Part shown: in pieces, positions 41,121-62,280 of the stretch
Layout: every line of letters begins with the position of its first letter
How positions within the stretch are numbered: the stretch's first letter is position 1
Assembly (NCBI GenBank): GCA_014879675.1
Contig: JACSRQ010000101.1
Span: forward strand, 901 to 64,900
Length of the DNA stretch: 64,000 bases
Direction of reading: 5' to 3'
Origin: Ignavibacteria bacterium
Lineage (GTDB): Bacteria; Bacteroidota; Ignavibacteria; Tepidaquicellales; OLB5
Notes under the pieces: model-generated
Seen by the model: only the letters and a program-made list of their open reading frames with translations
Database searches by the model: none
What the model was told of the DNA's origin: nothing
Position numbers and translations under genes: made by a program

Positions 41121-42614
41121 TTAAAAAGGATCTTCGGGTTTTTCAGCCGGCAATGGTTCGTCTTCTTTAAACTTTTTCTTTGATTTCCTGAATTTACTGA
41201 ACATTTCGACTGCTTTCCTGAATTCATCAGAATTCCTGTAACTTCTGTACAGGTAAGTTCCGCTTAATCCTAAATAAACAACTCCCAGCAAAATTTTCAT
41301 CCATAAACCGATCCTGTAATGGCTGCTTAGCCATATCAAAACCCCAGATGCTGACATTAGAGCAATTATGAAGCTGTATTTATATTCAATCCTGTAATAC
41401 TTCTGTGAAGTGATAAGCGTGAAAATGAATATAGTGAAGTTAGCTGCCAGAATAGCTATTGCAGAACCGATCGAAAGCCATGTAGGTGTAAGCAAGGTAT
41501 TCAGAAGAATATTAACTGCTGCAGCGATCAGCATGATCCAAATTGTATGCTGCAGCTTTTTGGAAAGCCCAATACCTGCTGCGGCAATAAAATAGCCTCC
41601 GGTAAATACCATCGAAAAACACAGCAGCGGAATTACATATACCGCCGAGTAATATGCGGGCTGTGTCAAAACCTGAAGGATCTCTGATGCGAATATAGAT
41701 ACCAAAAATACAAGGATGGTATTAAGAACAAAATAAAGCTGGAACACCTTTGCGTAGATTTTTTTTGCGTTGGGCTCATATTGGATATCAGAACAAAACG
41801 GACCCCAAGCCATCTGGAATGCCCCTGAAAATGCCCCCATGATAGCAGCTACTTTCAATCCAACGGAATAAATACCAATTTGATTCAACCCGCTAAGGTA
41901 ATTGAGGAAATACCTGTCTGAATAATTCAGCACCCATGATGCTACTGCTGTGCCAATAAGCGGCGCGCCGTAAGCCAGGATATTTTTCGCCCATTTGAAA
42001 GAAAACTGAAGCTTATAGTTCTTTATGATATATATCACTCCGAATACTGCAAAAACTCCATACGACAGAATACTGGCGTAAATTACACCGGTAACTCCAA
42101 GCTTGAGGACCAGCACGAACAATATTGCTGAAAGTATATTAAGCAGCACATTGCCTGTTGAAAAGAAAGTGTACATCCACGGCTTAATGCTGAATCTTAA
42201 AAGCTCGGTAGCGAAAAAGTATATTGCGTTGAATGCAATATATACGGAGTAGAGCATTATCAGCTCCCTGCCTTCGCCGTGAAAAATAAGGTCTGATAGG
42301 AATGGGGAAATGATCATAAGAACTGCAGCAATTGAAAGAGAGAATACAATTCTTATGATGAGTCCGGATGATACAAGTATGTTTTTCTCACTCTGGAATT
42401 CTTTGCGGAAATAAAAATATCCAACTGAAGCATCAGTTCCGGATATAATAAGGAAAGAGCTGAAAACAGCCACAGAATTTAAAAGGTCGAGTATTCCGTA
42501 ATCTGAGGGGTTGAGTACAGCAGTATATAGAGGCAGCAGGAAAACACCAATGAATTTGCTGATGTAACCGCTAAGGCCGTAGATGAATGATTCTTTTAGA
42601 AGTTTTTTGAGCAA
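41121..42614 (-). CDS. Oligosaccharide/polysaccharide flippase (Wzx, MOP superfamily)
   Basis: 497 aa with a TTG start and about 12-14 TM helices. Typical Wzx N-terminus (SFIYGLSGYISKFIGVFLLPLYT). Confidence 0.8.
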   Translation of the reverse strand: MLKKLLKESFIYGLSGYISKFIGVFLLPLYTAVLNPSDYGILDLLNSVAVFSSFLIISGTDASVGYFYFRKEFQSEKNILVSSGLIIRIVFSLSIAAVLMIISPFLSDLIFHGEGRELIMLYSVYIAFNAIYFFATELLRFSIKPWMYTFFSTGNVLLNILSAILFVLVLKLGVTGVIYASILSYGVFAVFGVIYIIKNYKLQFSFKWAKNILAYGAPLIGTAVASWVLNYSDRYFLNYLSGLNQIGIYSVGLKVAAIMGAFSGAFQMAWGPFCSDIQYEPNAKKIYAKVFQLYFVLNTILVFLVSIFASEILQVLTQPAYYSAVYVIPLLCFSMVFTGGYFIAAAGIGLSKKLQHTIWIMLIAAAVNILLNTLLTPTWLSIGSAIAILAANFTIFIFTLITSQKYYRIEYKYSFIIALMSASGVLIWLSSHYRIGLWMKILLGVVYLGLSGTYLYRSYRNSDEFRKAVEMFSKFRKSKKKFKEDEPLPAEKPEDPF

Positions 42615-42620
42615 AATTGA

Positions 42621-43649
42621 TTAGTTTAGTAGTAAATCTGAATACTGTTTTGCTACAATTTTAGAATCATGATACTTAACCACATACTTCTTTCCGGCTT
42701 TCCCGGTTTCCTTCCATGATGAAGTATCTCTTAATAAGCCGCGAAGTACATCATATATGGTTGCCGGATTTGCGTTGATCATCGGGTTATCCGGTGGCTG
42801 TGCCGCTGCAACATCCTCGCGCATGTAGCAGACTACGGGTTTTTCAAACATCATTGCTTCCAGCGGAAGCATTCCAAACCATCCCTGGATAAGCTGATCA
42901 ACAACGAGGTCTGCTTTAATTATTTCTTCATATAGCTTTTGCAGGCTTACGTTGTTTACCAAGCGGAACTCAAAATCAAACTCTTCTTTGAGCTTCTCAA
43001 CAGCATCAACCAGATATTGTGTGCCTTTATAACCAAAATTACTTGGTGCGTGAAGTATGACAGGCTTTGGATTATCAGGGTGGTCTATTGTTTCCGGAAA
43101 TTCTTCTATATTGATAGGCTGATTGAGATGGGGTGCATCCCTGTGAATAACATTTCTCATAGCCCTATCATTAAAAATCACATCAATCAGTTCTTCAAGT
43201 TTACGTGTCCTGAGCTTTTTAGTTTCGGGTACACAGCCTACAAATTTTTTATATTCATCGGTGCAAACATGACAAGATGAATAGGGGATGTAAGGTTCAT
43301 GTGTCAACTCCGGCTGCTGAACGTCGCAGCCTGTGAAGATAAGGCCGGTCTTTTTACCGAAAAACCTGAGAATCTTGAGGTCCTTATGATCTTTAAGAAA
43401 TGTTTGTGTTGATATAAATAAAAATGCGTCATATTTAAAAAGGCATTTAATAAGGAAATACCTGGTATATATCCTCTGCATCCACCTGCTTTTGGGAAGA
43501 TTGTATCTTTTCAGTCGTTCAGTTGAATAGTTAAATACATGGTCGCCTTCAATATATACGTCAGCATTGGCGCCAATACCCTCAAATCCTTTCAGCAGCC
43601 TTGTGGCATACCCCGCAACATTACTGAAACCTACAAATAGTCTCTTCAT
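42621..43649 (-). CDS. GT-B glycosyltransferase (GT4-like) with a four-cysteine insert
   Basis: 342 aa. The C-terminal half has ILHAPSNFGYKGTQYL and an EX7E-type motif LEAMMFEKPVV. Cys108, Cys126, Cys129 and Cys139 form a cluster. Confidence 0.65.
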   Translation of the reverse strand: MKRLFVGFSNVAGYATRLLKGFEGIGANADVYIEGDHVFNYSTERLKRYNLPKSRWMQRIYTRYFLIKCLFKYDAFLFISTQTFLKDHKDLKILRFFGKKTGLIFTGCDVQQPELTHEPYIPYSSCHVCTDEYKKFVGCVPETKKLRTRKLEELIDVIFNDRAMRNVIHRDAPHLNQPINIEEFPETIDHPDNPKPVILHAPSNFGYKGTQYLVDAVEKLKEEFDFEFRLVNNVSLQKLYEEIIKADLVVDQLIQGWFGMLPLEAMMFEKPVVCYMREDVAAAQPPDNPMINANPATIYDVLRGLLRDTSSWKETGKAGKKYVVKYHDSKIVAKQYSDLLLN

Positions 43650-43830: not shown

Positions 43831-44820
43831 TTACCAATAATGTTTGCGGTTTTTTTCGTAATACGATATGGTTGCTCTAATCCCTTCTTCAAGGCCGGTA
43901 ACGGGTTTCCATGGGATCATATTTGTGATCTTGGTAATATCCGCGTAGTAATCACCGGGTTCCAGCGCTTTGCGCTCGCTTGTGAATTCAGTATAATTTA
44001 CTTTCCCTTTACCCGCAATTTTGATTATCATTTCAGCAAGCTCAACAAAACTTAAGGGCTTGCCCGAACCAATATTATAAACATCTCCATAGGCTTCTTC
44101 GGATAATGCTATTTGCACAAGCGAGTTTACAAGATCATCTATATACAGGTAATCTCTCAATATCCTCCCGTCTCCGAAGATCGGGATAACTTCGCTATCC
44201 ATCGCTTTACGGATGAACCAGTTGAATACTCCATATTCATCATGTGCCATCTGATGGCGGGGTCCGAATGTATTTGTGATCCGTAAGCAAAGCGATTTTA
44301 TCTTGTGCAGATTATTGTAAGTTAAAACAATGCGTTCTGCCGCAAAATTTGTTATGGCGTATATACCAATAGGATTAATAGCATGGCTTTCTGAAACAGG
44401 CAGAGTGAGTGAGGAACCGTACTCTCCGCGCGTGCCGGTAAAAATCACTTTTGCTGAAGGATTGTTATTTTTCAAAGCTTCCATCAAAACAAGTGTGCCC
44501 TCCACATTTATTGAAAGGTCGTTTAGCGGGTCCTTTACACTATCAACGTGGTTAACCTGTCCGGCAATATGAAATATATAATCCATCCCTTTTACAAGAT
44601 GGTTCATGGAAGTTGGGTTCCTGATATCCGAAATATTTATCTTAACTTTATCCTTAACGGGCTCTATATTGAACATATTCCCGCCCTGCCGCGGCAGCAT
44701 GTTATCAATTATTAATACATCTGCGCCAAGTTCAACCAGCTTAATTGCTAAATTGCTTCCTACGAAGCCAAGGCCACCGGTTATGAGTACTTTTTTATTC
44801 TTGATCTTAGATTTATCCAT
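43831..44820 (-). CDS. NAD-dependent epimerase/dehydratase (extended SDR)
   Basis: 329 aa with VLITGGLGFVGSNL Rossmann motif and a YxxxK-type catalytic region. Confidence 0.85.
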   Translation of the reverse strand: MDKSKIKNKKVLITGGLGFVGSNLAIKLVELGADVLIIDNMLPRQGGNMFNIEPVKDKVKINISDIRNPTSMNHLVKGMDYIFHIAGQVNHVDSVKDPLNDLSINVEGTLVLMEALKNNNPSAKVIFTGTRGEYGSSLTLPVSESHAINPIGIYAITNFAAERIVLTYNNLHKIKSLCLRITNTFGPRHQMAHDEYGVFNWFIRKAMDSEVIPIFGDGRILRDYLYIDDLVNSLVQIALSEEAYGDVYNIGSGKPLSFVELAEMIIKIAGKGKVNYTEFTSERKALEPGDYYADITKITNMIPWKPVTGLEEGIRATISYYEKNRKHYW

Positions 44821-44856: not shown

Positions 44857-45561
44857 TTAAACCTCTCCCTTAATGAGTTGGGATGTCTTTTCTGAGCCGC
44901 AGTTCATTAATGCGTCAAGAACTGATAGCCCCGGCACAAATTCTGAGGTATTGAATTGATCATAGACAGGGTGCTTAAAATTCTGATAAATGAGCTCAAT
45001 ATTATTCCGTTTAAACTTTTCATCTTCCTGGTACTTTGATGCCCCGCCTCCGCACATATAAGCGTTACATCCGGCTTCATTCACAATTGAAACCAAGAGA
45101 TCGGTTGAATTCCCCGAAACATTCATCGCAGAGCCTCGATTGAAATGAGAAGTATCAATTTTCAGCAGTTTACAGAATTCATGTATAACGGTCAAATTAT
45201 ACTCAGCCAGATTTTCGCCGGGAGAGCGCAGGAGCTTTTCAGCAATAGGATACATTTCAACGAAGAATTTTGCCTTACCGTAATTTACGCTAATTGTTTT
45301 AAGCATCTTCTGGTTCCAGCTTCGGGAATTATCTATTTCAATCTCATTTACATCTTTCATTCCGCTGTATGACCGGTTAATAGGCATTGTGACCCATTCG
45401 CCCTTGCCGCCTAAAATTATTTTTACCCTATTCGACCAATTCCCGCCCTTTTTAGGATACTGTACATTATCCAAAATAACGAAAACATCTGAGCGAACGA
45501 TCTTATTAAAAAATCCCAGCCAGGGGAAAAAAGACGGCTGATGTATTGCGGCAATTTTCAA
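44857..45561 (-). CDS. WbqC family protein
   Basis: 234 aa with a TTG start. MKIAAIHQPSFFPWLGFFNKI is the characteristic WbqC N-terminus. Confidence 0.8.
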   Translation of the reverse strand: MKIAAIHQPSFFPWLGFFNKIVRSDVFVILDNVQYPKKGGNWSNRVKIILGGKGEWVTMPINRSYSGMKDVNEIEIDNSRSWNQKMLKTISVNYGKAKFFVEMYPIAEKLLRSPGENLAEYNLTVIHEFCKLLKIDTSHFNRGSAMNVSGNSTDLLVSIVNEAGCNAYMCGGGASKYQEDEKFKRNNIELIYQNFKHPVYDQFNTSEFVPGLSVLDALMNCGSEKTSQLIKGEV

Positions 45562-45586
45562 TGTTTGAGGTTGAGTGATAGAAACT

Positions 45587-46333
45587 TCATTTAATGTTTT
45601 CTCTGCCCATTAGTCTTAAAAGTGCATCGTAGTTGTCTTTTGTCTTTTGGCTTCTGCCATCTATGCAGCGCAAGACCCTCTGACGGGGTGAAAGCACTTC
45701 ATCCTGCCACCAGGCGGGATGTGTTAATACCTGCAGCTTTTTGTGTTTTTCGGATAACAGTACATCTTCCAATCTCTCAAACCGCCAATAGCCATTGGAA
45801 TCGCTGCAATATCCAAATTCTTCGCGGAAATATTTTGAATATGTATTTATCATACCGGCGTATCTATCGGAATTGTATGAGAGGATATCTTCCGTTGTAT
45901 TATGAAATGAAAATACGTTTACGGGTATACCAAAAAGCTTTTCCAGAATACTTTTTTCAAACTGCAGTTGTTCTTCAAGCTGAGCTTCTGACGCAATTGC
46001 ATAATAATGACAATCAAAGTGCAATCCCGCATTGTGTCCTAATTTGAATATCTTTTCAAGCAGTGCTGAAATTTCTTTCTCAAACACATTATAGAACTCA
46101 TTGTGTAGGTGAATAAAAAAAGTTGAATTTACACCTTCATCATGTTCTATCTTTGCCAACGCGTAAGCGGAATGTACAGAGAAATCTATATCATGGCGCC
46201 AGATAACGGGGTTTTCGATCTTTCCGAAGTCTTCAAAACTGCAGAAACTGTACTTTTGTTTCGCGAGATTTAACAGTCTGCTGTAATTATCCCTTGTGAA
46301 ATCTTCAAAATTATATTTTTCGCTGTCATTCAT
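45587..46333 (-). CDS. Polysaccharide deacetylase-like protein (RHDID-type)
   Basis: I trimmed from 46405 to the ATG at 46333 (MNDSEKYNFEDF...). It has WRHDIDFS and FFIHLHN motifs and is common next to WbqC genes. Confidence 0.5.
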   Translation of the reverse strand: MNDSEKYNFEDFTRDNYSRLLNLAKQKYSFCSFEDFGKIENPVIWRHDIDFSVHSAYALAKIEHDEGVNSTFFIHLHNEFYNVFEKEISALLEKIFKLGHNAGLHFDCHYYAIASEAQLEEQLQFEKSILEKLFGIPVNVFSFHNTTEDILSYNSDRYAGMINTYSKYFREEFGYCSDSNGYWRFERLEDVLLSEKHKKLQVLTHPAWWQDEVLSPRQRVLRCIDGRSQKTKDNYDALLRLMGRENIK

Positions 46334-46491: not shown

Positions 46492-47304
46492 CTATATTTC
46501 ATATTTCATATTTATGGTGAAAGCTCTATCGGGTATATCCCACTTCTTTTCTTCAGCAGGTTTGAAATAGAACTGCGGCGAATATATTGCCATATTCGAT
46601 TGCTGAAGGTGGTATATGTGTTTGTGATTTTCCTTTGGGAGTGCATTAAGTATTCCGCAAAGTACATTTTTGTTCAGTTCTCCCAATAAATAATAGTCAT
46701 GCCATGCGATAACAGAATTATTGTCCTTCGTAAGATCCAGCGCAATACGCGTATCGTTTTCAACGTATTCCTGCGAATGATTGCCATCAATAAATACAAG
46801 CTCACAGCTTTTCCTGTATTTTGTTGGATCAAATTTCATGCTGTCTGATTTCAGGAAATGGACATTTTTTTTATCGCGTGCGTAATATCCAAAAATATGC
46901 TGTGGTATTTTGAATATCGCAATATCGGGATGGTCGAAAGGAATATCCAAGGAATATATTTCGGAGGAGTCGTCCAGATTATCCGAAACATTCCTTGCAG
47001 ATAGTCCAAGCCAGGTACCAATTTCAAAGTATCTTTTTGCTTTAAGTGCATTCGCGAATCTGCAAAGAAAATAATAATCGTTTTCAGGGGAGATACCGTA
47101 TGAGAAATCCGTTGTTATTTTGAATGTATCAGATGATGGGGGATAGAGTGCGAATACATCAGCGGGCTTCACTGATGGCAGTTTATCCATACCATACTTT
47201 TCCAGTACGGCTTCCTGGGATTTTTCATAATTTTTCTGATTTACCATACCCAGAATATGTCTTCTGTACTTAACCAGCCCTGAAAGTTTTGCTATTTTAC
47301 TCAT
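46492..47304 (-). CDS. Class I SAM-dependent methyltransferase (Methyltransf_24-like)
   Basis: 270 aa with FEIGTWLGLSARNV (motif I) and VFIDGNHSQEYVENDT. Confidence 0.7.
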   Translation of the reverse strand: MSKIAKLSGLVKYRRHILGMVNQKNYEKSQEAVLEKYGMDKLPSVKPADVFALYPPSSDTFKITTDFSYGISPENDYYFLCRFANALKAKRYFEIGTWLGLSARNVSDNLDDSSEIYSLDIPFDHPDIAIFKIPQHIFGYYARDKKNVHFLKSDSMKFDPTKYRKSCELVFIDGNHSQEYVENDTRIALDLTKDNNSVIAWHDYYLLGELNKNVLCGILNALPKENHKHIYHLQQSNMAIYSPQFYFKPAEEKKWDIPDRAFTINMKYEI

Positions 47305-47332: not shown

Positions 47333-48055
47333 TTATATACCGCCATTACTCTTCAGAAGAAATTCGTTTGCGATATCAGCCAGTTTGCGCGTAGTTAAAT
47401 TATTATGTTTGCAGTATGAAAGCAGCGAGATCAGCAGATCGCGAGTACCTACAACTTCTGTATTCCTGAACTCCAACAGTGCCTTTGCATCCTGGTAATG
47501 TCTTTTGGCTTCATTATATCTATACTTGTTTTCCGTATTAAGATAAATATGTATAGGTGAAAAAGCAAATACTACTAGATCTTCATCTTCCAGGTTCATT
47601 CCGCTGTCATCAAATGAATATCCATAAGCCCAGTGGACATCATCTTCCCAGTTGTACGGAATGCGTACCAAGCCGGTCCAAAGTTTGATTGGCTTAAGTC
47701 CGGATTGATAGGGAAGGAAATGATTGGCATCATACAGCAGCTTTTTATCTGTGAACATCTGCAGAAGCTCTGTGCTTTGAAGCATTGAATGAGATCTCAC
47801 CCCCTGTGCTTCCGGGTGAATATCCATGATCTCATCTACGATATCAACGGCACGCTTATCGGATTGTCCGTTCAGTATCGGATTGAAATTCGGATGAATT
47901 CCCGTTTCAAACAGGTTTTTATTGCATTTTGTAAGCTCGATGGAGTGATGAGTTGAAAAAAAAGTACATCTTACACCATAGAACTCGAATAGGTTAATAG
48001 TATCTGCTATTACTTCTTCAGGTGCCCAGTCAATATCTGATGTAAATACTATCAT
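47333..48055 (-). CDS. Polysaccharide deacetylase-like protein (WbmS-like)
   Basis: 240 aa with N-terminus MIVFTSDIDWAPEEVIADTINLFEFYGVRCTFFSTH. Its start overlaps the upstream stop (ATGA). Confidence 0.55.
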   Translation of the reverse strand: MIVFTSDIDWAPEEVIADTINLFEFYGVRCTFFSTHHSIELTKCNKNLFETGIHPNFNPILNGQSDKRAVDIVDEIMDIHPEAQGVRSHSMLQSTELLQMFTDKKLLYDANHFLPYQSGLKPIKLWTGLVRIPYNWEDDVHWAYGYSFDDSGMNLEDEDLVVFAFSPIHIYLNTENKYRYNEAKRHYQDAKALLEFRNTEVVGTRDLLISLLSYCKHNNLTTRKLADIANEFLLKSNGGI

Positions 48056-48828
48056 ATTTCAATTATGTCTGCGTTCCAAATGGTTACTCTTTTGCCGTTT
48101 ATTTCTGTAAATGCCCCGGGATAAGGTTTTGATTGCGCACGAATAAAATTTCTGATCCTTTCAGGATCCCAGGACCAGTCTATTTTTCCGTCTTCCGGTT
48201 TTCTTTGGGGCACATAAGTTGCTTCAGTATCGTTTTGTTTAGTCCGTGAGGCTTTGCCTTCGGCCAACTGTTGAATAGACTCATCAATTATTTCTAATGC
48301 TGCATCAGTGGTTTTTGCGATCAGGTCACTTATAAAGTCGTCTTCCTTAATTGGAAATTCTTTCTGAGAAATAATATCTCCGTTATCTACTCCTTCTTCA
48401 AGGTAGAAGAATGAGAGACCGGTTTTTTTCTCCCCGTTTATCATTGCCCACACAAGAGGCGCGCCCCCGCGATACTTTGGCAGCAATGATGCATGCATGC
48501 CGGCGCATCCCAGCTTCGGTATCTCACGGATCGATTTTGGTACAATATAGTACCAGCCAATAACCAGTATCATGTCAGGTAAATATTTTCTGATCTCTTC
48601 GGTGTAATCGCCCATTTTCGCGGTAACTGATATTACCGGGATGTTAAACTCTTTGCCAAGCGCATGGAAATCTGCAAAATTCACATTTGTAACGGGTTTA
48701 TCGGAATAAGAGATATTAAATTCTTTCGGAATTGTGAATATACAGGATACTTCTGCAAGCTTTTTTTCAATTATCCGCCTGCAGCATTTGCATCCAAGCT
48801 CCGAAGCCCCAAAGAAAACTATTTTCAT
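48052..48828 (-). CDS. Sugar N-formyltransferase (Fmt/ArnA-N-like)
   Basis: 258 aa with HASLLPKYRGGAPL (catalytic His, SLLP motif) and VDNGDII. Its start overlaps the asnB stop (ATGA). Confidence 0.8.
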   Translation of the reverse strand: MKIVFFGASELGCKCCRRIIEKKLAEVSCIFTIPKEFNISYSDKPVTNVNFADFHALGKEFNIPVISVTAKMGDYTEEIRKYLPDMILVIGWYYIVPKSIREIPKLGCAGMHASLLPKYRGGAPLVWAMINGEKKTGLSFFYLEEGVDNGDIISQKEFPIKEDDFISDLIAKTTDAALEIIDESIQQLAEGKASRTKQNDTEATYVPQRKPEDGKIDWSWDPERIRNFIRAQSKPYPGAFTEINGKRVTIWNADIIEI

Positions 48829-55861: not shown

Positions 55862-57811
55862 CTAAAAGCTATTACCGCGGGAAAACAGGTCAAGGAAAAA
55901 TTTAAGGCTGAGCAGCCGCCAGATCTCCCAGCTGTAATCCTTAGAATTATTAAAGTGTTCGGCAAGGTTCTTTTCAAGTATTGCTGAATCTATGTAATCA
56001 TGAAGAGAGCTGTTTTTTTCGAGCAGGGTGTCAATGATGAATGGTTTAAGAGATGTTTTGCTCCATTTGGAAAATGGTACGGGAAAACCAAGTTTATCTT
56101 TCCTGTTAACTACTTCTGCCGGAAGATACGGCCTGAGTGTTTTCCTGTACAAGGGCCGTGTCACACCCCTGTGTGAAAGGTACTTCGAGCTGAGATTTAC
56201 ACCCAGTTCTACAAGCCTGTAATCCAGAAACGGAACCCTGCTCTCAATTGAATGTGCCATTGAAGATCTATCTTCATAATGAAGAAGTGCAGGTATAGTA
56301 ATGTTCCTGATAAAATGGTAAGATAAATTTCCTAAGTAATTACCGAATTTTTTTTGCGGTTCAATATCAAAAAAGAGAGATTGTTTCGGGATTTCATTCA
56401 AAAGAGCTTTGTTAACTATATCGAATTTTCCGGATAGACGTGATCTTGTTAAGTAACCATATTGCCTGGGGAAAAGCCAGCCTGCAAAAGAATGAATGCC
56501 ATTCTTATTTAAAAACTGTACGAAATTTCCTGATTCACTCAGAAGCGCGCCCAGCCTTCGGTCTTTCAATACACCCCGCAGGTATGCGCCCATTTGGAAG
56601 TAGCCTCCGAATACTTCATCCCCGCCTTGCCCATCGAGCAAAACCTTGACATGTTCTCCGGCTTTTTGCATAACAAACCATTGCGGATAAAGACCCGGCC
56701 CTTCTGTCGGGATTTCCTGAAAATAACAGAGTTTTCTGAATACTGACTCAAACTGGTCTTCAGTGGGATAAGTCTTATGTTCTATACAGCCATATTTTGC
56801 GTTTACTATATTAATATAATAGGATTCATCACATTCTTTTTCTTTCCAAACAGCACTAAAAGTATTCAATCCGCCTTGTTTAATCGCAGAAGAAAGGGAT
56901 ACTATGCTAGATGAATCGAAACCGCCGCTCAGGCAAGTGCCAACCGGAACATCGCTTCTAAACCTCAACTTGATGGAATCAGTAAGAAGATTTATCAACT
57001 TCTCCTGCAGCTCAGTTTCGCTCAGTTTTTTACCTGATTCTGCTTCTATATCGTAGTATCTCTTAACTGATACTTCACTTCCTGATAACACAAGATAGTG
57101 AGAAGAGGGCACTGAGTAGATCTTATCCAGATATGTATCGTGTGAATTCAGACGGTTGCCATATATCAGATAAAATGGAATTTTATGTTTGTTAATATTT
57201 GGCCGCACGGGATAAAGAGATACAAGCGGCTTTATTTCTGATGAGAATGCGAAGAAGCTCCCCGTTTTTGTATAGTATAAAGGTTTGATTCCGAATCTAT
57301 CTCTAGCAAGAAACAATATTTTCTTTGAATTATCCCAAATGGCAAAAGCCCACATTCCGTTGAACTTATTCAGACATTCAGTACCCCAATGTTCATAAGC
57401 CCGGAGGATCACTTCAGTATCACTCGAAGTTCTGAAGGAATAACCAAATGTCAATAGCTCTTCACGTAATTCAGGGTAATTGTAAATTTCCCCGTTGTAT
57501 GTTATCCAGTATCTTCCATTTTCGGAGAACATAGGTCCATGACCATTTTCACTAAGGTCAATAATGGAAAGTCTTCTGTGCCCAAGAATAAGATCCGAAC
57601 CGTCATTTGCTAAATTTGAAATATGAGGGTGATTGTGTTTTACCGTTTCAATACTTGAATCTCCGCTGTATTGTATAAATCTGCCGTTACTGCGGTTTAT
57701 TGCCACGAAGCCCTCATCATCGGGTCCACGGTGTTTGAGCAGAATGTTAAGGTTCTTAATCTTTTTTTGAAGCGAATAATCGGATGTTACGATTCCGTTA
57801 ATCCCGCACAT
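55862..57811 (-). CDS. Asparagine synthase (glutamine-hydrolysing) family amidotransferase, copy 2
   Basis: 649 aa with MCGINGIV (Cys2), HRRLSIIDLS, ITYNGEIYNY and the SGGFDS PP-loop. Confidence 0.85.
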   Translation of the reverse strand: MCGINGIVTSDYSLQKKIKNLNILLKHRGPDDEGFVAINRSNGRFIQYSGDSSIETVKHNHPHISNLANDGSDLILGHRRLSIIDLSENGHGPMFSENGRYWITYNGEIYNYPELREELLTFGYSFRTSSDTEVILRAYEHWGTECLNKFNGMWAFAIWDNSKKILFLARDRFGIKPLYYTKTGSFFAFSSEIKPLVSLYPVRPNINKHKIPFYLIYGNRLNSHDTYLDKIYSVPSSHYLVLSGSEVSVKRYYDIEAESGKKLSETELQEKLINLLTDSIKLRFRSDVPVGTCLSGGFDSSSIVSLSSAIKQGGLNTFSAVWKEKECDESYYINIVNAKYGCIEHKTYPTEDQFESVFRKLCYFQEIPTEGPGLYPQWFVMQKAGEHVKVLLDGQGGDEVFGGYFQMGAYLRGVLKDRRLGALLSESGNFVQFLNKNGIHSFAGWLFPRQYGYLTRSRLSGKFDIVNKALLNEIPKQSLFFDIEPQKKFGNYLGNLSYHFIRNITIPALLHYEDRSSMAHSIESRVPFLDYRLVELGVNLSSKYLSHRGVTRPLYRKTLRPYLPAEVVNRKDKLGFPVPFSKWSKTSLKPFIIDTLLEKNSSLHDYIDSAILEKNLAEHFNNSKDYSWEIWRLLSLKFFLDLFSRGNSF

Positions 57812-57815: not shown

Positions 57816-58550
57816 TTAGAATAAACCTCCGTTAAGATTTATCGTCTGGCCGGTAATGTACTTCGAGTTTTCTGCGCAAAGATAAGAAATACATTCCACA
57901 ATTTCCAAAGGATTCCCAAACTCTTTGATCGGGATAGTATCTTTTATTTGATTTCTGATATCTTCAGGTATCTGGTAAAGCATGCCTGCATCAAAATATC
58001 CGAGTGAGATCACATTTGCAGTAATGTTGTTCTTTATTACTTCTTTTGAAATTGTTTTACATAGTCCAAACAATCCTGATTTGGATGCTGCATAGGCAGC
58101 GGTACCCGCAACACCTATCTGGGGAACCACTGAGGACATATATACTATCCTTCCGAATTTGTTTTCCTTCATAAGCGGCAGCACATGTTTTGAGCATAAA
58201 AAAGGCCCGGTAAGGTTAACATCAAGTACTCTTGACCAATCTTCGAACTTCAGTTTCCAGCTCATCGCATTTATGGAAACACCCGCATTATTTATCAGCA
58301 GGTCAATAGTTCCGAACTCGCTTTTGACTTCATTTACAAGGTTCGCAACTTCGGCTTCGATTGTTATATTTGCTTTGTAAGTTTTGTATTTGATTCCACT
58401 ATTCTTAATCTCTGCAATTAATGAATCCAGTTTACCCGGATTATCATTACAATGCAGAGCCAGATTAATACCCTTGGCAGCAAGCCCTGAGCTTATGTAT
58501 TTACCCAAGCCGCCCGATGCCCCGATAAGCAAAGCGTTTTTAACTGACAT
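57816..58550 (-). CDS. SDR family oxidoreductase (FabG-like)
   Basis: 244 aa with IGASGGLGKYI, NNAG and YAASKSG motifs. Confidence 0.85.
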   Translation of the reverse strand: MSVKNALLIGASGGLGKYISSGLAAKGINLALHCNDNPGKLDSLIAEIKNSGIKYKTYKANITIEAEVANLVNEVKSEFGTIDLLINNAGVSINAMSWKLKFEDWSRVLDVNLTGPFLCSKHVLPLMKENKFGRIVYMSSVVPQIGVAGTAAYAASKSGLFGLCKTISKEVIKNNITANVISLGYFDAGMLYQIPEDIRNQIKDTIPIKEFGNPLEIVECISYLCAENSKYITGQTINLNGGLF

Positions 58551-59108
58551 TTACTTTCCCGAAAGAACTAATTTGTAAGTTTGATCTCTAACCTTTTCAA
58601 GGTCAGCAATCATAAATAAATCTTCATCATCCCTGATATTTTGTATCTTCCAGCCCATCTTAAGAAACAAAATGATCGATCCGTTGTTGGATTTAGGCCA
58701 GAAACCTTCCTGGTGCGTGAAACCATTATCTAAGCCGGTTTGGCAAAGCTTAATAATATGAAGCTTTGCAAAGTTAAATCCCCTGGTATCTTTTCTTGCG
58801 TAAGTGCAATGATTATGGATTATTTTGTCGTAAACTGATGAGAAATTGAGAAAGCAGATCTCATCTTTATCGTTCACTATTATGAAGCTGTATTTCCATT
58901 TATCAACAAGCGGGTTCAAAAAATAGTCACGGGTTTCTTCTTTCCAGCCGTAAATCGGATAGTGTTCTCTTCTGATCGAATTTACGAATTCTATGATGTC
59001 TTCCATCCTGGAATTCATAACTTCTTCTGATATCAATTCGATCCTGAACCCATTGTAATTCAGACGTGAATCTACAAATTCGTGAAAATTCATGTTTTGT
59101 GGTTCCAT
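58551..59108 (-). CDS. Hypothetical protein, possibly GNAT-fold acyltransferase
   Basis: 185 aa. It directly abuts the SDR gene. TRGFNFAKL and FLKMGWK are reminiscent of GNAT motifs A/B. The assignment is weak. Confidence 0.35.
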   Translation of the reverse strand: MEPQNMNFHEFVDSRLNYNGFRIELISEEVMNSRMEDIIEFVNSIRREHYPIYGWKEETRDYFLNPLVDKWKYSFIIVNDKDEICFLNFSSVYDKIIHNHCTYARKDTRGFNFAKLHIIKLCQTGLDNGFTHQEGFWPKSNNGSIILFLKMGWKIQNIRDDEDLFMIADLEKVRDQTYKLVLSGK

Positions 59109-59142: not shown

Positions 59143-59433
59143 TTATAATGAACCGAAATTTTTCATTAAGACCTGTCGTATCACGTAAGCTACAGATACA
59201 ATAAGTAATGTGTAGAAAACTACAGTAATGAGTGAATATTTGTTTACAGTATATTTTTTGCGGATTCCACGCCAGCCGCACTCCCTGCATTTGTAAAGAT
59301 TTGCAGTTTTTGTAGCTTTAAGAGCTGCTTCCCATATATTTTTGGTGCGGCTTCTTCTTATGGTTCCCAGTTTGCCGCAAGAGAGGCACTTAGAAGTTTC
59401 AGGAAACGTCTTGAAAAATATTTTTAGCTGCAA
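59143..59433 (-). CDS. Small zinc-ribbon protein with C-terminal TM helix
   Basis: 96 aa. The TTG start lies 3 nt after the wzc stop. CLSCG...CRECG (CxxC x29 CxxC), then YSLITVVFYTLLIVSVAYVI. Confidence 0.5.
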   Translation of the reverse strand: MQLKIFFKTFPETSKCLSCGKLGTIRRSRTKNIWEAALKATKTANLYKCRECGWRGIRKKYTVNKYSLITVVFYTLLIVSVAYVIRQVLMKNFGSL

Positions 59434-59436
59434 GTC

Positions 59437-61755
59437 TTAGTTCGGTTTAATTATCTTTTCCTTGGCATTGCCATTTTTCGAAGCCCCGTTAACTGCAGCC
59501 CCGTTAGTTCCGGGTTTATCTTTGCCTTTTTCAGAACCGTAATAGTAATAATAGTACTTATAATAACTTCCGTATGTAGCCTGGTAATCAAAGTTATTCA
59601 GTATCACGCCAATAAATGTATCGTTGATCTTATTTAGTGTATCAATTGTATTTACAAGCAGGTCAAGCCTGGTTTTGCTTGCAAGGCTTACTACTACTGT
59701 GCCATCCACATAAGAAGAGAGCAATTCAGCATCGGTAACCGTTGCCAGCGGCGGTGAATCGATAAGTATGTAATCATACTTTGGCTTCATTTGGTTCAGG
59801 AATGTTTGCATATGCTTTGATGCAATTAACTCCGCCGGGTTGGTTGGAATAGTTCCGCAGGTCATTAAATGCAGATTAGGGAAAGAAGTTTCTCTGACTG
59901 CTTCCTCAAGAGGAACAGTTCCGAAGAGATAGTCGCAAAGTCCCGGGTACCTTTTCAGGTTGAAAATGTTGTGCATCCTTGGTTTCCTGAAATCGCAGTC
60001 AAGCAGAAGAACCCTTGATGATAGTGCAAAGCTTGCTGCCAGGTTTGATGAAATGATCGTTTTACCTTCTCTTGGAATAGAGCTGGTGATCAAAATTGTC
60101 TTAATTGGTTCAGGTTCAAGCTTGGAGAACTGAAGTCTTGTTCTTAGTGTCCTGAACGCTTCTGCCGGCACAGAGTCTGAGTTATATGCTACCACAAGCT
60201 CCTGCTCGGTATGAGTATGCCTGCCGGCTTTTGGTTCACGCATAAATGTTGGTACCCATCCAATAAGTGATATGCCGATGTTCTCCAGGTCTTCAGGTGA
60301 CTTAACAGATACATCAAGTATGTTTCGCAGTAATGCAAATCCATAGCCTAAACCAAGACCAATAAGCAACCCGATAGTAATAATAAGGAACCTGTTTGGT
60401 TTGGAAGGAGCTTTGGGTACCTTGCCATAATCTATGATCTTTACATTGTTTGGCTGTGACTCTTCATTGATAAGCGCTTCCTGGTATTTTTCGAGAAGCA
60501 TTAAATAGATCTTTTCATTTGCAAGGCGTTCGCGTTCAAGATTTGCGTATTCAATGCTTTGAGCAGGCAGTTTATTGAATTTCTCCTGGTACTTACCCAT
60601 ATATGTTTTCAGGAGGCCTTCTTTAATTCTGCTTTGATTATTCGCTACTTTGGTTTCAAAGTATTTGTTTGAAAGGTTTCTGACTTCTTCAGGTGTATTG
60701 GAAGAAGCACCGTCTTTCATTATCTCGAGCTTTTCATTAAGTATTCTTTTAAGCTCGTTAATCTTGCCGTCAATTTCTTTAAGTGATTTGGAGTTCTTTA
60801 CGAGCTCTTCATTTCCTACCTTAGAAAGGTCTCTTTGTATCTCTAGTTTAGCAATTTCACCCTGGATCTCTGAAATATACGGATCAGTTATCCTGCTTTC
60901 GAAATAATCGGTTGCCTTGGGATCGTATTTATCCAGTTCGTTTTTTATATCCGTTAAAGCTTTGTTTGTTGATTGTACATCAATTAATGCCCATTTGTAA
61001 TCGCCTTCAATTCCTGATAAAGAATTGATGATCGAGCTTGCCTGCGTACTGATCTCAACAACATTTTCAGTTCTTAAGAAGTTGGTAAGTTTATCTTCGG
61101 TTTGCAGCAGTGAGTTGTATTTTTCCTGTACTTGTTTTTCAAGGAACTCTCTGTTCAGGGTTAAATGTCCCCTGTTGAATTTAAGCGAATAATCGGCGTA
61201 TGCTTCAGCATAGCAGTTCGAAATGAGAGCAGCTTCCTGGGGCGAAGGGCTCTCAGTCTTGATCATTACGATATCAAGACCCCTTTTTTGCGATATCTCA
61301 GTGTGCTGCTGCAGCAAGCCGGCTATCTGGCCCTTGCTCTTAGGGTCAGCAGGGCTTTCCGGATTAGTTATGAGCAGATAAAACTGCATCTTACCTTTAA
61401 GTACCTGGAACGAATCAAGCAGGGCTGTTGCCGTTTTCTCGCGAATAGCGTATGACTTCAGTATCTCAACTTCGTTGTTAATGTAACGTTCGGGAAGCTC
61501 TCCTTCAACATCTGAAAATATTTTGTTTTCCAGAACATTTTCTTTGGGCTTAGTCAGCCTCATTGATGATGCTGAAGCATAAATATCAACCTGTGAATAT
61601 GCATAAAAATATGAAACTATCAAACCCACTGCAAGGCTCAGCAAAATTGGCACTTTGTTGCGCAGGATAAGATTAAAATAGAATCTAATACTGTGTGAAG
61701 ACTTAATATTAGAATCTATATTGCTGAATGCTTTGCCGTTTGATTGAGAGTCCAT
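59437..61755 (-). CDS. Polysaccharide co-polymerase / tyrosine autokinase (Wzc/GumC-type)
   Basis: 772 aa. Wzz-like N-terminal region with coiled coil. Walker A SSIPREGKT, Walker A' LLLDCDFRKP, Walker B YILIDSPP. C-terminal Tyr cluster YGSYYKYYYYYYG. Confidence 0.9.
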   Translation of the reverse strand: MDSQSNGKAFSNIDSNIKSSHSIRFYFNLILRNKVPILLSLAVGLIVSYFYAYSQVDIYASASSMRLTKPKENVLENKIFSDVEGELPERYINNEVEILKSYAIREKTATALLDSFQVLKGKMQFYLLITNPESPADPKSKGQIAGLLQQHTEISQKRGLDIVMIKTESPSPQEAALISNCYAEAYADYSLKFNRGHLTLNREFLEKQVQEKYNSLLQTEDKLTNFLRTENVVEISTQASSIINSLSGIEGDYKWALIDVQSTNKALTDIKNELDKYDPKATDYFESRITDPYISEIQGEIAKLEIQRDLSKVGNEELVKNSKSLKEIDGKINELKRILNEKLEIMKDGASSNTPEEVRNLSNKYFETKVANNQSRIKEGLLKTYMGKYQEKFNKLPAQSIEYANLERERLANEKIYLMLLEKYQEALINEESQPNNVKIIDYGKVPKAPSKPNRFLIITIGLLIGLGLGYGFALLRNILDVSVKSPEDLENIGISLIGWVPTFMREPKAGRHTHTEQELVVAYNSDSVPAEAFRTLRTRLQFSKLEPEPIKTILITSSIPREGKTIISSNLAASFALSSRVLLLDCDFRKPRMHNIFNLKRYPGLCDYLFGTVPLEEAVRETSFPNLHLMTCGTIPTNPAELIASKHMQTFLNQMKPKYDYILIDSPPLATVTDAELLSSYVDGTVVVSLASKTRLDLLVNTIDTLNKINDTFIGVILNNFDYQATYGSYYKYYYYYYGSEKGKDKPGTNGAAVNGASKNGNAKEKIIKPN

Positions 61756-61758
61756 ATG

Positions 61759-62280
61759 TTAGTTGTTTGTTAGTGTGATAATGAATGTTGCGATCGAAAT
61801 GAGCGTTGTGAAGATCGGGATATACAAAGAAAGATCTTCTCTGAATGTATATCTTTTTTCTTTTAGAATAATTACTACATCGCCTGCTTCTAATACCGGA
61901 TTTGACCGGGGTTTTGTTGATACCTTTTCATCCCAAAGCAGATCGTCATAATCAAGCTTGATCAGTTGTGCCGTTTTTCCCGCTACATTAGAATTCCGTA
62001 TAATTCTAATTTCTTTTAGATTTGATTCGTCAATAGGGCCGCCGGCATAACTCATAAGATCCATGAACGTTGTCTTAATGGGTACACGGTATCTGCCCGG
62101 AAGCCTAACGTAACCCCACAAATTCACTTCTATGTTCACACCAGTTGGATCACTTAGATCGTATAGTGCAGCACTTTTGTTATTTTGAGAATTGCCAAGT
62201 ATCAAATTATCATCGTCATCCTGTGAAAAAGATAAACCAAAAATCAGAAAGAATAGTACAGATCCAAGAAGATATTTCAT
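61759..62280 (-). CDS. Short polysaccharide export protein (Poly_export/SLBB, Wza-like) with C-terminal TM helix
   Basis: 173 aa with a signal peptide. VNLWGYVRLPGRYRVPIKTTFMDLMSYAGG and GDVVIILK are typical of Wza N-terminal/SLBB domains. It ends with the hydrophobic IPIFTTLISIATFIITL. Confidence 0.7.
   Translation of the reverse strand: MKYLLGSVLFFLIFGLSFSQDDDDNLILGNSQNNKSAALYDLSDPTGVNIEVNLWGYVRLPGRYRVPIKTTFMDLMSYAGGPIDESNLKEIRIIRNSNVAGKTAQLIKLDYDDLLWDEKVSTKPRSNPVLEAGDVVIILKEKRYTFREDLSLYIPIFTTLISIATFIITLTNN

Follow-up and report, generated by a model that had tools for sequence, protein, structure and literature searches.

A probable capsule- or EPS-type surface-polysaccharide locus of uncultured Ignavibacteria, conserved without a starter transferase or polymerase in cis

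In the window, i.e., the whole stretch of 64,000 nucleotides that was analyzed, the genes at 41121-62280 (minus strand) probably form a lineage-conserved surface-polysaccharide locus of uncultured Ignavibacteria, of the capsule or EPS type, in which a glycan with wbm-like tailoring would be flipped by Wzx and exported by Wzc while starter transferase and polymerase are unlinked. That these last two functions are absent is conserved among the orthologous loci and not a peculiarity of the window. The bounds of the locus are exact, since the SLBB gene starts at 62280 and the Wzx gene has its stop at 41121. It holds 20 ORFs, all intact, and not the 21 genes counted in an earlier note; their co-orientation on one strand stands, whereas the "many" 4-nt overlaps come down to three junctions (g7/g8, g12/g13, and g13/g14). 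Pfam and NCBIfam searches match the SLBB, Wzc (GNVR plus BY-kinase), FabG-like SDR, PIG-L, DegT, formyltransferase, WbmS-like, WbqC and MOP/Wzx flippase proteins, as well as two AsnB, two extended SDR and two SAM methyltransferase proteins, and every function named in the note is backed by HMM, profile or structure evidence. The genes are:

g1, 61759..62280, minus strand: 173-aa protein with a signal peptide, an SLBB domain (Pfam SLBB, E=1e-8) and a C-terminal hydrophobic helix
g2, 59437..61755, minus strand: 772-aa Wzc-type PCP-2a co-polymerase with BY tyrosine autokinase (Pfam GNVR, AAA_31, Wzz; NCBIfam TIGR01007, 184.7 bits, cutoff 108)
g3, 59143..59433, minus strand: 96-aa protein with a zinc ribbon (two CxxC; weak Zn_ribbon match) and a single TM helix (TM scan)
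g4, 58551..59108, minus strand: 185-aa GNAT-fold N-acyltransferase (profile of 18 orthologues matching PDB GNATs)
g5, 57816..58550, minus strand: FabG-like classical SDR of the 3-oxoacyl reductase type (adh_short, E=9e-51; TIGR01830, 228 bits, under cutoff)
g6, 55862..57811, minus strand: AsnB-family glutamine-dependent amidotransferase 1 with N-terminal MCG (Asn_synthase, E=3.5e-71; GATase_7; TIGR03108, 385 bits, cutoff 817)
g7, 54606..55799, minus strand: 397-aa protein with two TM helices and a predicted periplasmic beta-sandwich plus transglutaminase-like Cys-His-Asp domain
g8, 53947..54609, minus strand: PIG-L/LmbE-family zinc de-N-acetylase (PIG-L, E=1e-12; AHPDD and HxDH motifs), overlapping g7 by 4 nt
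g9, 52867..53859, minus strand: extended SDR, GalE/TviC/LegB-like, with the motifs SSSASVYG and YGATK (Epimerase, E=2e-55; under cutoff in NCBIfam GalE, LegB and TviC)
g10, 51688..52857, minus strand: DegT/PseC/ArnB-type PLP sugar aminotransferase (DegT_DnrJ_EryC1, E=1.5e-112; PseC, 304 bits, and ArnB, 300 bits, both under cutoff)
g11, 50739..51686, minus strand: SAM methyltransferase (Pfam Methyltransf_11), found in just 2 of the related loci
g12, 48825..50708, minus strand: AsnB-family amidotransferase 2, part of the long-layout module (Asn_synthase, E=9e-85; TIGR03108, 461 bits, cutoff 817)
g13, 48052..48828, minus strand: 258-aa sugar N-formyltransferase, ArnA-N/Fmt-like (Formyl_trans_N and Formyl_trans_C; HASLLPKYRG motif; PRK06988, 199 bits, and ArnA, 171 bits, both under cutoff)
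g14, 47333..48055, minus strand: WbmS-like de-N-acylase (PF22537, E=1e-54), overlapping g13 by 4 nt
g15, 46492..47304, minus strand: SAM methyltransferase (Pfam Methyltransf_24)
g16, 45587..46333, minus strand: 248-aa RHDID/GLHFD-motif protein, weakly CE4-like (orthologue profile)
g17, 44857..45561, minus strand: WbqC-family protein, a core gene (PF08889, E=2.5e-65)
g18, 43831..44820, minus strand: extended SDR with a non-canonical YxxxN replacing YxxxK (Epimerase, E=7.5e-45)
g19, 42621..43649, minus strand: divergent GT4-type GT-B glycosyltransferase (profile and AF2 structure matches)
g20, 41121..42614, minus strand: Wzx-type MOP/PST flippase with at least 10 TM helices (Polysacc_synt_3, E=8e-15; Polysacc_synt, E=1.4e-9; TM scan)

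No match to the families Bac_transf, Glycos_transf_4, Wzy_C or O-antigen ligase was obtained for any protein of the locus, and a phosphoglycosyl transferase, Wzy or WaaL-like gene was found neither in the locus, the 64-kb window and ~83 kb of the source contig nor in the 10 kb past each window end. According to a TM scan, Wzx is the sole polytopic protein of the locus, g7 having two TM helices and g3 one. Family searches and TM scan thus bear out the earlier claim that there is no starter transferase, no polymerase and just one glycosyltransferase; nor does the locus match any characterised cluster gene for gene. Neither a Wzb-type phosphatase nor a UDP-sugar 6-dehydrogenase is present in it.

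In 31 other Ignavibacteria genomes the orthologous locus keeps its synteny and is flanked by fabG-fabD and a CNNM/CorC gene; with two metagenome loci added to the 31 genome loci, the synteny set is entirely from Ignavibacteria. The shared core consists of the SLBB, Wzc, g3, g4, FabG-like, AsnB, g7, PIG-L, WbqC, WbmS-like, g19 and Wzx genes, and some relatives carry in addition a GFO_IDH_MocA oxidoreductase followed by a second DegT, others LbH acyltransferases. Neither a starter phosphoglycosyl transferase nor any recognisable Wzy is encoded in the ~32 related loci, and both are assumed to be encoded elsewhere in the genome. The earlier statement that the locus does not explain assembly therefore holds in cis but makes no paradox, since split Wzx/Wzy pathways are documented in M. 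xanthus, where genes of single pathways lie from >18 kb to >1 Mb apart (PMC9603273).

Regarding export, g1 had been described as a "mini-Wza". While the SLBB domain is there, and the C-terminal helix is kept in orthologues, Pfam matched neither Poly_export nor Wza_C in g1, its family profile matches no Wza structure in the PDB, and the M. xanthus OPX protein EpsY gives a weak NCBIfam match (E=4e-4); g1 is an OPX-like "mini-Wza" by position only. The Wzc protein looks active, judging from its Walker motifs, a GNVR region with two TM helices (TM scan) and a C-terminal tyrosine cluster, YGSYYKYYYYYYG, kept in every orthologue inspected. Directly after wzc in all cases comes g3, both CxxC motifs of which are kept in 25/25 orthologues. 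It is absent from the ENA gene calls.

The single GT-B glycosyltransferase, g19, always immediately upstream of wzx, is confirmed as a two-domain GT4. Its Pfam GT1 match is under cutoff, but its profile matches lead to GT4 C-domains in the PDB, many homologues carry PF00534, and the AF2 model (pLDDT 92.3) has PglA, MshA and BshA as best PDB neighbours in Foldseek (E~1e-13, TM 0.65-0.72); four Cys residues are conserved in the N-domain. That all other glycosyltransferases are lacking is true of the present locus but not of the original state, most relatives carrying a second GT4 after PIG-L, conserved at 50-69% identity, of which no remnant exists anywhere in the 64-kb window. The single-glycosyltransferase state is derived, the second GT4 having been cleanly lost in this lineage, and the same layout is seen in genomes L005 and L026. 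Against L005, dN is 0.01-0.11 and dS is saturated (dN/dS ~0.01-0.04 where computable), which indicates that the reduced locus is maintained under strong purifying selection.

Among the tailoring genes, catalytic motifs are intact in g6, g8, g10, g12, and g13 on inspection, those of g9 are kept in 14 orthologues, and the YAITN of g18 in 8/8 sequences compared. The core gene g6 is present in 30/32 related loci analysed and always adjoins g7. The possible GNAT g4 has no Pfam match as a single sequence and is supported at profile level (n=18, PDB 2jlm, E=2.9e-7). In contrast, the deacetylase-like character given to the RHDID-type protein g16, which has no Pfam match, stands weakly, its 10-orthologue profile reaching CE4 at E=0.095 (7y51); its likely start is an internal Met (ENA call, 248 aa), although the longest ORF reaches 46405. 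No relative of g17 exists in the PDB. The enzyme set agrees with the formylated, amidated and methylated sugar that had been predicted, with two reservations. The formyltransferase g13 is translationally coupled to the WbmS-like g14, and the formyl group may therefore be present only transiently, as it is in the Arn pathway; furthermore, given the missing UDP-sugar 6-dehydrogenase, a uronic-acid substrate for AsnB is an assumption.

The most distinctive gene of the locus is g7, which the inventory of the earlier note passed over. C200, H242, and D259 do not vary among 35 sequences, and the positive-inside rule predicts an N-in topology with a periplasmic inter-TM domain. It matches no Pfam or NCBIfam family, and an exhaustive profile search gave just 9 clusters <1e-30, the weak matches being Transglut_core proteins; g7 belongs to an Ignavibacteria-specific family. 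The AF2 model (pLDDT 86.7) shows weak fold matches to NAT, vasohibin and TG2, all Foldseek matches to transglutaminase-fold structures being non-significant (E>0.1). In almost every locus AsnB, g7 and PIG-L follow each other in this order. One distant relative is found in an unrelated metagenomic locus (L037) beside a WbqC-family gene, a GT4 and two AsnB genes, another (L036) outside any glycan locus.

The comparison with the Bordetella wbm locus that had been called for is apt, since g14 is a strong homologue of WbmS (PDB 3hft, E=1.3e-48) and the AsnB/transglutaminase-like pair has its parallel there. Both loci hold more than one AsnB-type glutamine amidotransferase as well as several extended SDRs (WbmF/G/H in Bordetella bronchiseptica/parapertussis), and g7, as a putative periplasmic Cys-His-Asp transglutaminase-superfamily protein, lies beside an amidotransferase gene. 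The wbm O-chain is not known to be made by a Wzx/Wzc system, whereas the present locus has Wzx, Wzc and the SLBB protein; furthermore, the window is devoid of the WbpB/WbpD-type enzymes that 2,3-diacetamido uronic acids require. WbmE, whose locus also holds three amidotransferases and WbmS, is a periplasmic papain-like enzyme of the transglutaminase superfamily that deamidates O-chain uronamides (PMC2615507). The AsnB/g7 pairing would mirror WbmC/I/Z and WbmE, a likeness of g7 and WbmE by description, and g7 differs by its two-TM anchor and extra beta-sandwich.

In the favored reading of a Wzx-flipped, Wzc-exported polysaccharide, nucleotide sugars would be epimerised or oxidised (g9, g18), transaminated (g10) and N-formylated (g13) in the cytoplasm, g14 possibly taking the formyl group off again. 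De-N-acetylation (g8, g16) would be followed by re-acylation by the GNAT g4, with a 3-hydroxyacyl group from the FabG-like g5, then by methylation (g11, g15) and conversion of carboxylate to carboxamide (g6, g12). An unlinked phosphoglycosyl transferase, assumed to exist elsewhere in the genome, would prime undecaprenyl phosphate, and g19 would attach the following sugar, so that the repeat would count about two sugars, one fewer than in relatives with the second GT4. Wzx would flip the unit, an assumed unlinked Wzy polymerise it, and Wzc with the SLBB protein export the product. In the periplasm, g7 may edit the amides made by AsnB once the glycan has been flipped or completed, much as WbmE deamidates uronamides in Bordetella.

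Considering that starter transferase and Wzy are missing from ~32 related loci, it can also be proposed that the GT4 starts on a membrane lipid or another non-polyprenol acceptor, as do PimA, MshA, BshA, monoglucosyl-DAG synthase and PIG-A (with PIG-L), and that a short amino-glycolipid, and no Wzy polymer, is flipped by the MOP protein as a surface anchor to which g7, as a periplasmic transamidase, attaches proteins (e.g., T9SS cargo) or amines. The succession of core GT4 and PIG-L in most relatives follows GPI, mycothiol and bacillithiol logic, PimA, MshA and BshA are among the structural neighbours of g19, and the core GT4 weakly matches the MshA, BshA, MGlcDAG synthase and GlcNAc-PG synthase models, although all these scores are far under the family cutoffs. 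The organism encodes many T9SS cargo proteins, and an amide bond joins such cargo in Bacteroidota to a sugar that enzymes of the AsnB, deacetylase, GNAT and GT4 types build (PMC7468200); known attachment, however, proceeds via PorU and not a transglutaminase-like enzyme. An active-looking Wzc with a tyrosine tail and its SLBB partner head the operon everywhere, which points to a high-molecular-weight polymer, and the locus is maintained here even without the core GT4, so that a glycolipid product is rather unlikely. Still within the locus, amide chemistry might polymerise or cross-link the glycan and replace or supplement Wzy, g7 joining an AsnB-made carboxamide as donor to a de-N-acylated amine as acceptor without ATP and with release of ammonia. 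The sugar carboxamide is here likened to glutamine as acyl donor. The transglutaminase superfamily both makes and breaks amide bonds (PMC2615507), and the conserved AsnB-g7-PIG-L adjacency, the invariant triad and predicted location of g7, three de-N-acylase candidates and the lack of Wzy in cis everywhere would fit. Nevertheless, WbmE, the sole characterised polysaccharide-acting relative, hydrolyses, and a conventional Wzy encoded elsewhere is simpler. We know of no polysaccharide with an amide-linked backbone, and such a scheme seems improbable.

Loss of a GT4 that most relatives have kept could mean that the locus is a decaying remnant making no glycan, but with 20/20 ORFs and the above catalytic motifs intact, the low dN/dS against L005, which is independently GT4-less, and a third genome (L026) sharing the layout, there is very little to be said for decay. 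That a starter transferase or polymerase hides among the unmatched proteins is the least credible of all: Wzy proteins are very diverse and often missed by HMMs, and g4, g7, and g16 have no Pfam/NCBIfam match and g3 a sub-threshold one only, but g3 is a zinc-ribbon protein, g4 a GNAT, g7 transglutaminase-like, g16 weakly CE4-like and g19 a soluble GT4. TM counts and fold assignments largely refute this idea.

Several other systems share parts of this architecture. As in E. coli group 1 capsule and colanic acid, an MOP Wzx is combined with a PCP-2a Wzc (periplasmic GNVR region, cytoplasmic BY-kinase, tyrosine-rich tail) and a single-strand operon begins with the export genes at its 5' end; unlike there, WbaP, WcaJ, Wzy and Wzb are missing in cis and, as outer-membrane partner, there is a 173-aa SLBB-only protein. 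The EPS, BPS and MASC pathways of M. xanthus, the precedent for one Wzx/Wzy pathway over distant loci, have truncated OPX proteins without an outer-membrane-spanning domain that need a separate outer-membrane partner (PMC9603273). However, class-3 OPX proteins contain the Poly_export domain that g1 lacks, the tailoring set is unrelated, and neither the present locus nor its direct vicinity has a beta-barrel porin gene. With the Wbp/Vim system for the A-LPS linking sugar of Porphyromonas gingivalis, likewise a T9SS-bearing bacterium of the FCB group, the logic of AsnB-type WbpS, DegT, de-N-acetylase VimE, GNAT-type VimA and GT4 VimF is shared (PMC7468200). Its genes are scattered and feed LPS rather than Wzc-type export, whereas the window has no WbpA, WbpB or WbpD, its deacetylases are of the PIG-L and WbmS types, and g4 is a small GNAT as opposed to the FemAB-like VimA. 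The Arn (Ara4N) pathway differs in its ArnA-type decarboxylase (g9 is GalE-like), ArnC, ArnT and ArnE/F, all missing from this locus, and resembles it in the ArnB-like g10, the ArnA-N-like g13 and the overlap of the de-N-acylase gene g14 with g13, comparable to ArnA formyltransferase and ArnD deformylase. The Francisella tularensis wbt O-antigen (Qui4NFm and GalNAcAN) relies on an N-formyltransferase, a DegT, an AsnB-type amidotransferase and Wzx-dependent assembly, and its cluster includes a starter transferase of its own, wzy and several glycosyltransferases; to our knowledge, Wzc, an SLBB protein, a transglutaminase-like protein and a PIG-L, WbmS or WbqC set are missing from it. In this way, wbt sets a precedent for formylation and amidation of one and the same glycan.

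The surface-glycan locus runs on the minus strand from window position 62280 to 41121 and comprises 20 ORFs, here g1 to g20 in transcription order, coding for proteins of 96-772 aa. The genes are tightly packed, with gaps mostly below 90 nt and at most 181 nt, and overlaps of 4 nt occur at three junctions only, where an earlier note had seen many. That note had also counted 21 genes; the sole sizeable gap (43650-43830) holds no credible ORF for a twenty-first. Its enzyme list was otherwise borne out by Pfam and NCBIfam, and the locus it had singled out is real and accurately described. Proteins lacking a clear family match were resolved by orthologue profiles and by two AF2 models (g7 and g19). 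The locus genes assigned with Pfam/NCBIfam and the two bounding genes are as follows.

Window 39805-41109, plus strand: CNNM/CorC gene, housekeeping, bounds the locus
Window 62511-63443, plus strand: fabD, housekeeping, bounds the locus
g1 and g2 (first two locus genes), minus strand: SLBB protein and Wzc
g5 and g6, minus strand: FabG-like SDR and AsnB
g8, g9 and g10, minus strand: PIG-L, GalE/LegB/TviC-like extended SDR and DegT aminotransferase
g11 and g12, minus strand: Methyltransf_11 and second AsnB
g13 and g14, minus strand: ArnA-N-like formyltransferase and WbmS-like protein
g15, g17, g18 and g20, minus strand: Methyltransf_24, WbqC, second extended SDR and MOP-family Wzx

GC content is even across the window. 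No tRNA genes, which might have hinted at a mobile island, were found in it, and scans for promoters and terminators were uninformative, their counts matching the shuffled expectation.

A scan of species-representative genomes recovered 31 loci of this type, all from Ignavibacteria metagenome genomes except one labelled Solirubrobacterales (L019, CAVRGT010000001.1). The latter nevertheless carries an AsnB-g7-PIG-L-GT4 block of the Ignavibacteria type, has no SLBB and Wzc genes, and several of its ORFs are disrupted; the contig is probably mis-binned or chimeric. According to gene neighbourhoods and a phmmer synteny matrix, the relatives occupy the same chromosomal site, with Tricorn/Omp85, DoxD, DUF309, fabG and fabD on one side and CNNM on the other. 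Just downstream of the locus, the window has a close pair of CNNM/CBS/CorC_HlyC paralogues (37966-39252 and 39805-41109, both plus strand), the second being the conserved right-hand border in all relatives. The common core consists of SLBB, Wzc, g3, g4, the FabG-like SDR, AsnB, g7, PIG-L, WbqC, the WbmS-like protein, g19 and Wzx, and two arrangements, one short and one long, occur in the middle of the locus. The short one comprises PIG-L, GT4, a second PIG-L, WbqC, a reverse-strand FkbM-type methyltransferase, the WbmS-like protein and an SDR. The long one has PIG-L and GT4, then g9, DegT, the second AsnB, the formyltransferase, the WbmS-like protein and further genes, with extras that depend on the locus: either an LbH acyltransferase, or a GFO_IDH_MocA oxidoreductase and, after it, a second DegT.

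Regarding the tailoring enzymes, g14 belongs to the WbmS family (PF22537, E = 1e-54; PDB 3hft, Bordetella WbmS, E = 1.3e-48), while g6 and g12 both score above the TIGR01536 cutoff and possess the N-terminal Cys of AsnB-type amidotransferases; they are also related to the WbpS-type model TIGR03108, at scores below its cutoff. The 185-aa g4 is a GNAT by its profile match to PDB 2jlm (E = 2.9e-7, rounded to 3e-7) and is not FemAB-like. RHDID, GLHFD and FHN motifs are found in g16, together with a weak CE4 match. None of the papers that a literature search on WbqC retrieved characterizes it. Since the genes g13 and g14 share a 4-nt overlap, the formyl group may protect only transiently, by analogy with the Arn pathway, instead of being a final decoration. 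The locus encodes no UDP-sugar 6-dehydrogenase, so that an acid substrate for the AsnB enzymes is presumed. With its GalE-like motifs, g9 resembles an epimerase of the GalE type more than a dehydratase. In g18 (window 43831-44820, minus strand) YAITN stands at the YxxxK catalytic site, the same change being present in 8/8 sequences compared, and its sequence reads as that of a conserved non-canonical SDR with YxxxN for YxxxK.

On the export side, g20 is a Wzx of the MOP/PST family, with matches to Polysacc_synt_3 (E = 8e-15) and Polysacc_synt (E = 1.4e-9) and at least 10 TM helices. Likewise, g2 is a PCP-2a Wzc/BY-kinase: it reaches 184.7 bits against TIGR01007 (cutoff 108), has GNVR and two TM helices, and ends in a conserved tyrosine cluster, YGSYYKYYYYYYG. 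SLBB is the sole domain of g1. A Poly_export domain is part of the definition of every OPX class (PMC9603273); it is absent from g1, which thus falls outside these classes, and the g1 family profile matched no Wza structure in the PDB. Searches with Pfam and NCBIfam for the LMW-PTP/PHP families of Wzb/CpsB phosphatases gave no match among the 20 locus proteins. Next to wzc, g3 (window 59143-59433, minus strand) encodes a 96-aa double-CxxC zinc ribbon with one TM helix that is kept in 25/25 orthologues and may be a small partner of Wzc. These orthologues measure 95-97 aa and always lie directly 3' of wzc; g3 was missed by the public ENA gene calls for the 358,746-bp contig of metagenome assembly ERZ795033 to which the window belongs.

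The earlier note had remarked on the absence of an initiating transferase and of Wzy, which holds for the locus, for the window and for 10 kb past each window end, where no starter transferase, Wzy or glycosyltransferase was found outside the locus. No Bac_transf or Glycos_transf_4 protein (WbaP/PglC or WecA type) was detected among the locus proteins, among the larger ORFs in the rest of the window, within 10 kb of either window end or in the flanks of related loci, and a starter transferase is absent from every related locus as well. Wzy polymerases are polytopic, with 10-14 TM helices. In a hydropathy scan of the locus proteins Wzx is the single polytopic protein, so no starter transferase or polymerase is hidden in the locus; candidates among the family-less proteins were likewise ruled out by profile-to-PDB searches and the two AF2 models. 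A second polytopic protein was found neither in the locus nor in the window or the related loci, and no Wzy was recognizable in the latter, with one unclassifiable exception. This is a 574-aa protein in the related locus L029 (L029:11692-13416, minus strand), with 10 predicted TM helices and an EANDDY motif after the first helix, which matches no family and may be either a polymerase or a transferase of the GT-C type. An ATP-grasp/CoA-ligase gene (L029:16321-18429) adjoins that locus.

The single GT-B enzyme of the earlier note corresponds to g19. Its Pfam GT1/PF00534 match is sub-threshold in the window protein, many homologues carry PF00534, and the family profile matches only GT4 C-terminal domains in the PDB. 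The AF2 model (pLDDT 92.3) has PglA, MshA, BshA and PimB' as Foldseek neighbours (E ~1e-13, TM 0.65-0.72). E264, the EX7E-type glutamate of the C-terminal nucleotide-sugar-binding domain, is invariant, as expected of a GT4, and the N-domain has an unusual set of four conserved cysteines. Profile matches and model together identify it as a soluble two-domain GT4 (retaining GT-B), the sole glycosyltransferase of the locus. Adjacency of g19 and wzx was observed in 11/11 loci where both are seen. In the related locus L022, a different GT4 lies directly before wzx in the usual place of g19, and no g19-like ORF was detected.

Most relatives possess, after PIG-L, a second glycosyltransferase distinct from g19. 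This core GT4 is ~395 aa long, with PF00534, and its mutual identity is 50-69%. Examples from two related loci are:

L003:11853-13040: core GT4
L006:11857-13050: core GT4

It is absent from the window, from its 87%-identical relative L005 and from L026. The place where relatives hold it is, in the window, an 87-nt gap between g8 and g9 (53860-53946), and tblastn found no remnant or relocated copy in the window. Core GT4 has been lost in the window lineage. Against L005, the locus genes have dN of 0.01-0.11 with saturated dS, and dN/dS of ~0.01-0.04 where computable, which rules out decay of the GT4-less locus; the single-glycosyltransferase state is therefore derived but stable. From this loss, a repeat unit with one sugar fewer than that of relatives is predicted.

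The most distinctive member of the core is g7, a 397-aa protein (window 54606-55799, minus strand) without any match in Pfam, NCBIfam or PDB sequence families. In almost every locus the order AsnB-g7-PIG-L is found. Homologues number 162, all named ones being from Ignavibacteria or 'Chlorobi OLB5', and when 1.84 billion representative proteins were searched exhaustively with the profile, only nine clusters fell below 1e-30; the family is therefore small and essentially confined to Ignavibacteria. Weak profile matches past these clusters are Transglut_core proteins, and remote relatives are named 'transglutaminase domain-containing' or 'hypothetical' only. C200, H242 and D259 are invariant in 35/35 sequences. 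The AF2 model (pLDDT 86.7) comprises an N-terminal TM helix, a beta-sandwich, a Cys-protease-like core and a C-terminal TM helix, and the charge distribution predicts cytoplasmic termini and a periplasmic catalytic domain. Foldseek matches are all non-significant and cluster on transglutaminase folds (arylamine N-acetyltransferases, vasohibin, TG2, factor XIII). A distant transglutaminase-like relative occurs in an unrelated metagenomic glycan locus (L037; JGI 3300009405, Ga0117914_1000012) that also holds WbqC, GT4, two AsnB genes, methyltransferases, several radical-SAM/SPASM proteins and a heparinase II/III-like protein; another (L036) lies outside any glycan locus.

In Bordetella, WbmE is a periplasmic papain-like enzyme of the transglutaminase superfamily (C165/H201/D216) which deamidates uronamides of the finished O chain; three glutamine amidotransferases and WbmS are products of the same locus (PMC2615507). 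The WbmS-family and AsnB-type features of the wbm set are both present here (g14; g6 and g12). WbmE is the one characterized parallel to g7, whose invariant Cys-His-Asp, predicted periplasmic domain and remote Transglut_core relatives would make it a possible WbmE-like enzyme. The two differ in architecture, as g7 is anchored by two TM helices and includes a beta-sandwich domain. From the Arn (Ara4N) pathway, the C-terminal UDP-GlcA decarboxylase of ArnA, ArnC and ArnT have no counterpart, g9 being GalE-like and GT2 or GT-C proteins being absent from the locus. The Wbp/Vim enzymes of P. gingivalis include the AsnB-type WbpS, the deacetylase VimE, the GNAT-type VimA and the GT4 VimF (PMC7468200). 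The WbpA/WbpB/WbpE/WbpD route, VimE (CE4) and VimA (FemAB-like) were not found in the window, which encodes neither a UDP-sugar dehydrogenase nor a GFO_IDH_MocA oxidoreductase nor an LbH acetyltransferase; some related loci do encode the last two, and the likeness to this pathway is functional only. Compared with a Wzx/Wzy system with Wza-Wzc, Wzx and Wzc are present, and OPX, Wzy, starter transferase and Wzb/CpsB are not found in cis.

Altogether, the locus is a Wzx/Wzc polysaccharide system with Bordetella-wbm-like tailoring and, coupled to AsnB, a family-specific transglutaminase-like enzyme anchored in the membrane. The gene identities, their conservation, the predicted topology and the in-cis absence of starter transferase and polymerase are observed; beyond them, a working sequence of events can be proposed. 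Cytoplasmic nucleotide sugars would undergo epimerization/oxidation, transamination, N-formylation, de-N-acylation, re-acylation, methylation and carboxylate amidation. An unlinked phosphoglycosyl transferase would prime, g19 would extend, Wzx would flip and an unlinked Wzy would polymerize, after which Wzc and the SLBB protein would export the polymer; g7 would edit amides in the periplasm. The lack of assembly genes is a conserved trait of this clade-wide locus, for which a split pathway is the simplest explanation, and we infer that starter transferase and Wzy are encoded elsewhere in the genome. This has a precedent in M. xanthus, where the own genes of the EPS, MASC and BPS Wzx/Wzy pathways lie >18 kb, >223 kb and >1 Mb apart (PMC9603273).

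Two less conventional readings stay alive because g1 is SLBB-only, Wzb is missing and no relative has a starter transferase or Wzy in cis. The product could be a non-polymerized amino-glycolipid or anchor started by a GT4, which would combine GT4 and PIG-L in the manner of GPI, mycothiol and bacillithiol synthesis and finds some favour in weak family matches; an anchoring role is made conceivable by the many T9SS cargo proteins of the organism and, by analogy, by the Wbp/Vim enzyme logic of P. gingivalis (PMC7468200). Alternatively, g7 could ligate amide bonds with the AsnB-made carboxamide as acyl donor. Cytoplasmic AsnB would then pre-activate the sugar carboxylate as a carboxamide, a glutamine mimic, de-N-acylases would expose sugar amines, and g7 would transamidate after Wzx flipping, cross-linking units or chains or tethering surface proteins (e.g., T9SS cargo) to the glycan. 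If true, this would explain why ~30 related loci need no Wzy or starter transferase in cis. That the conserved core (AsnB, g7, the PIG-L/WbmS/CE4-like de-N-acylases and GNAT) forms a periplasmic, ATP-independent amide-ligation system for glycans is very improbable. For the present, the lack of a starter transferase and a polymerase is best read as an ordinary split pathway.

Ignavibacteria abound in wastewater reactors, sediments and hot springs, and to our knowledge nothing is known of their surface glycans; no literature on Ignavibacteria glycan loci was found. As a fixed, clade-wide envelope feature, the locus offers a genetic handle on their capsule or EPS and its role in flocs and biofilms. 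We know of only one protein, Bordetella WbmE, for periplasmic sugar-amide editing by a transglutaminase-fold enzyme. With g7, the idea of such editing is carried to a different phylum, a membrane-anchored architecture and genetic coupling to the amide-forming enzyme; should g7 ligate rather than hydrolyze, it would provide a new way to build or cross-link cell-surface polymers.

Nothing else in the window relates to glycans; the remainder comprises housekeeping genes, genes of the kynurenine pathway and several genes for T9SS cargo. Six proteins with a Por_Secre_tail (T9SS C-terminal sorting) domain, including a subtilase and BNR/sortilin-repeat proteins, are encoded at 14840-21064, 25597-28164 and 30972-33095, and the organism is therefore T9SS-bearing. 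Kynurenine-pathway-type domains are scattered over 12613-14732 and 21916-24611, with 3-hydroxyanthranilate dioxygenase, an Amidohydro_2 protein, kynureninase and an FAD monooxygenase. A 630-aa ORF at 36051-37943 (plus strand), with an N-terminal HAD-hydrolase, a D-2-hydroxyacid dehydrogenase and C-terminal ACT domains, looks like a SerB-SerA-type fusion.
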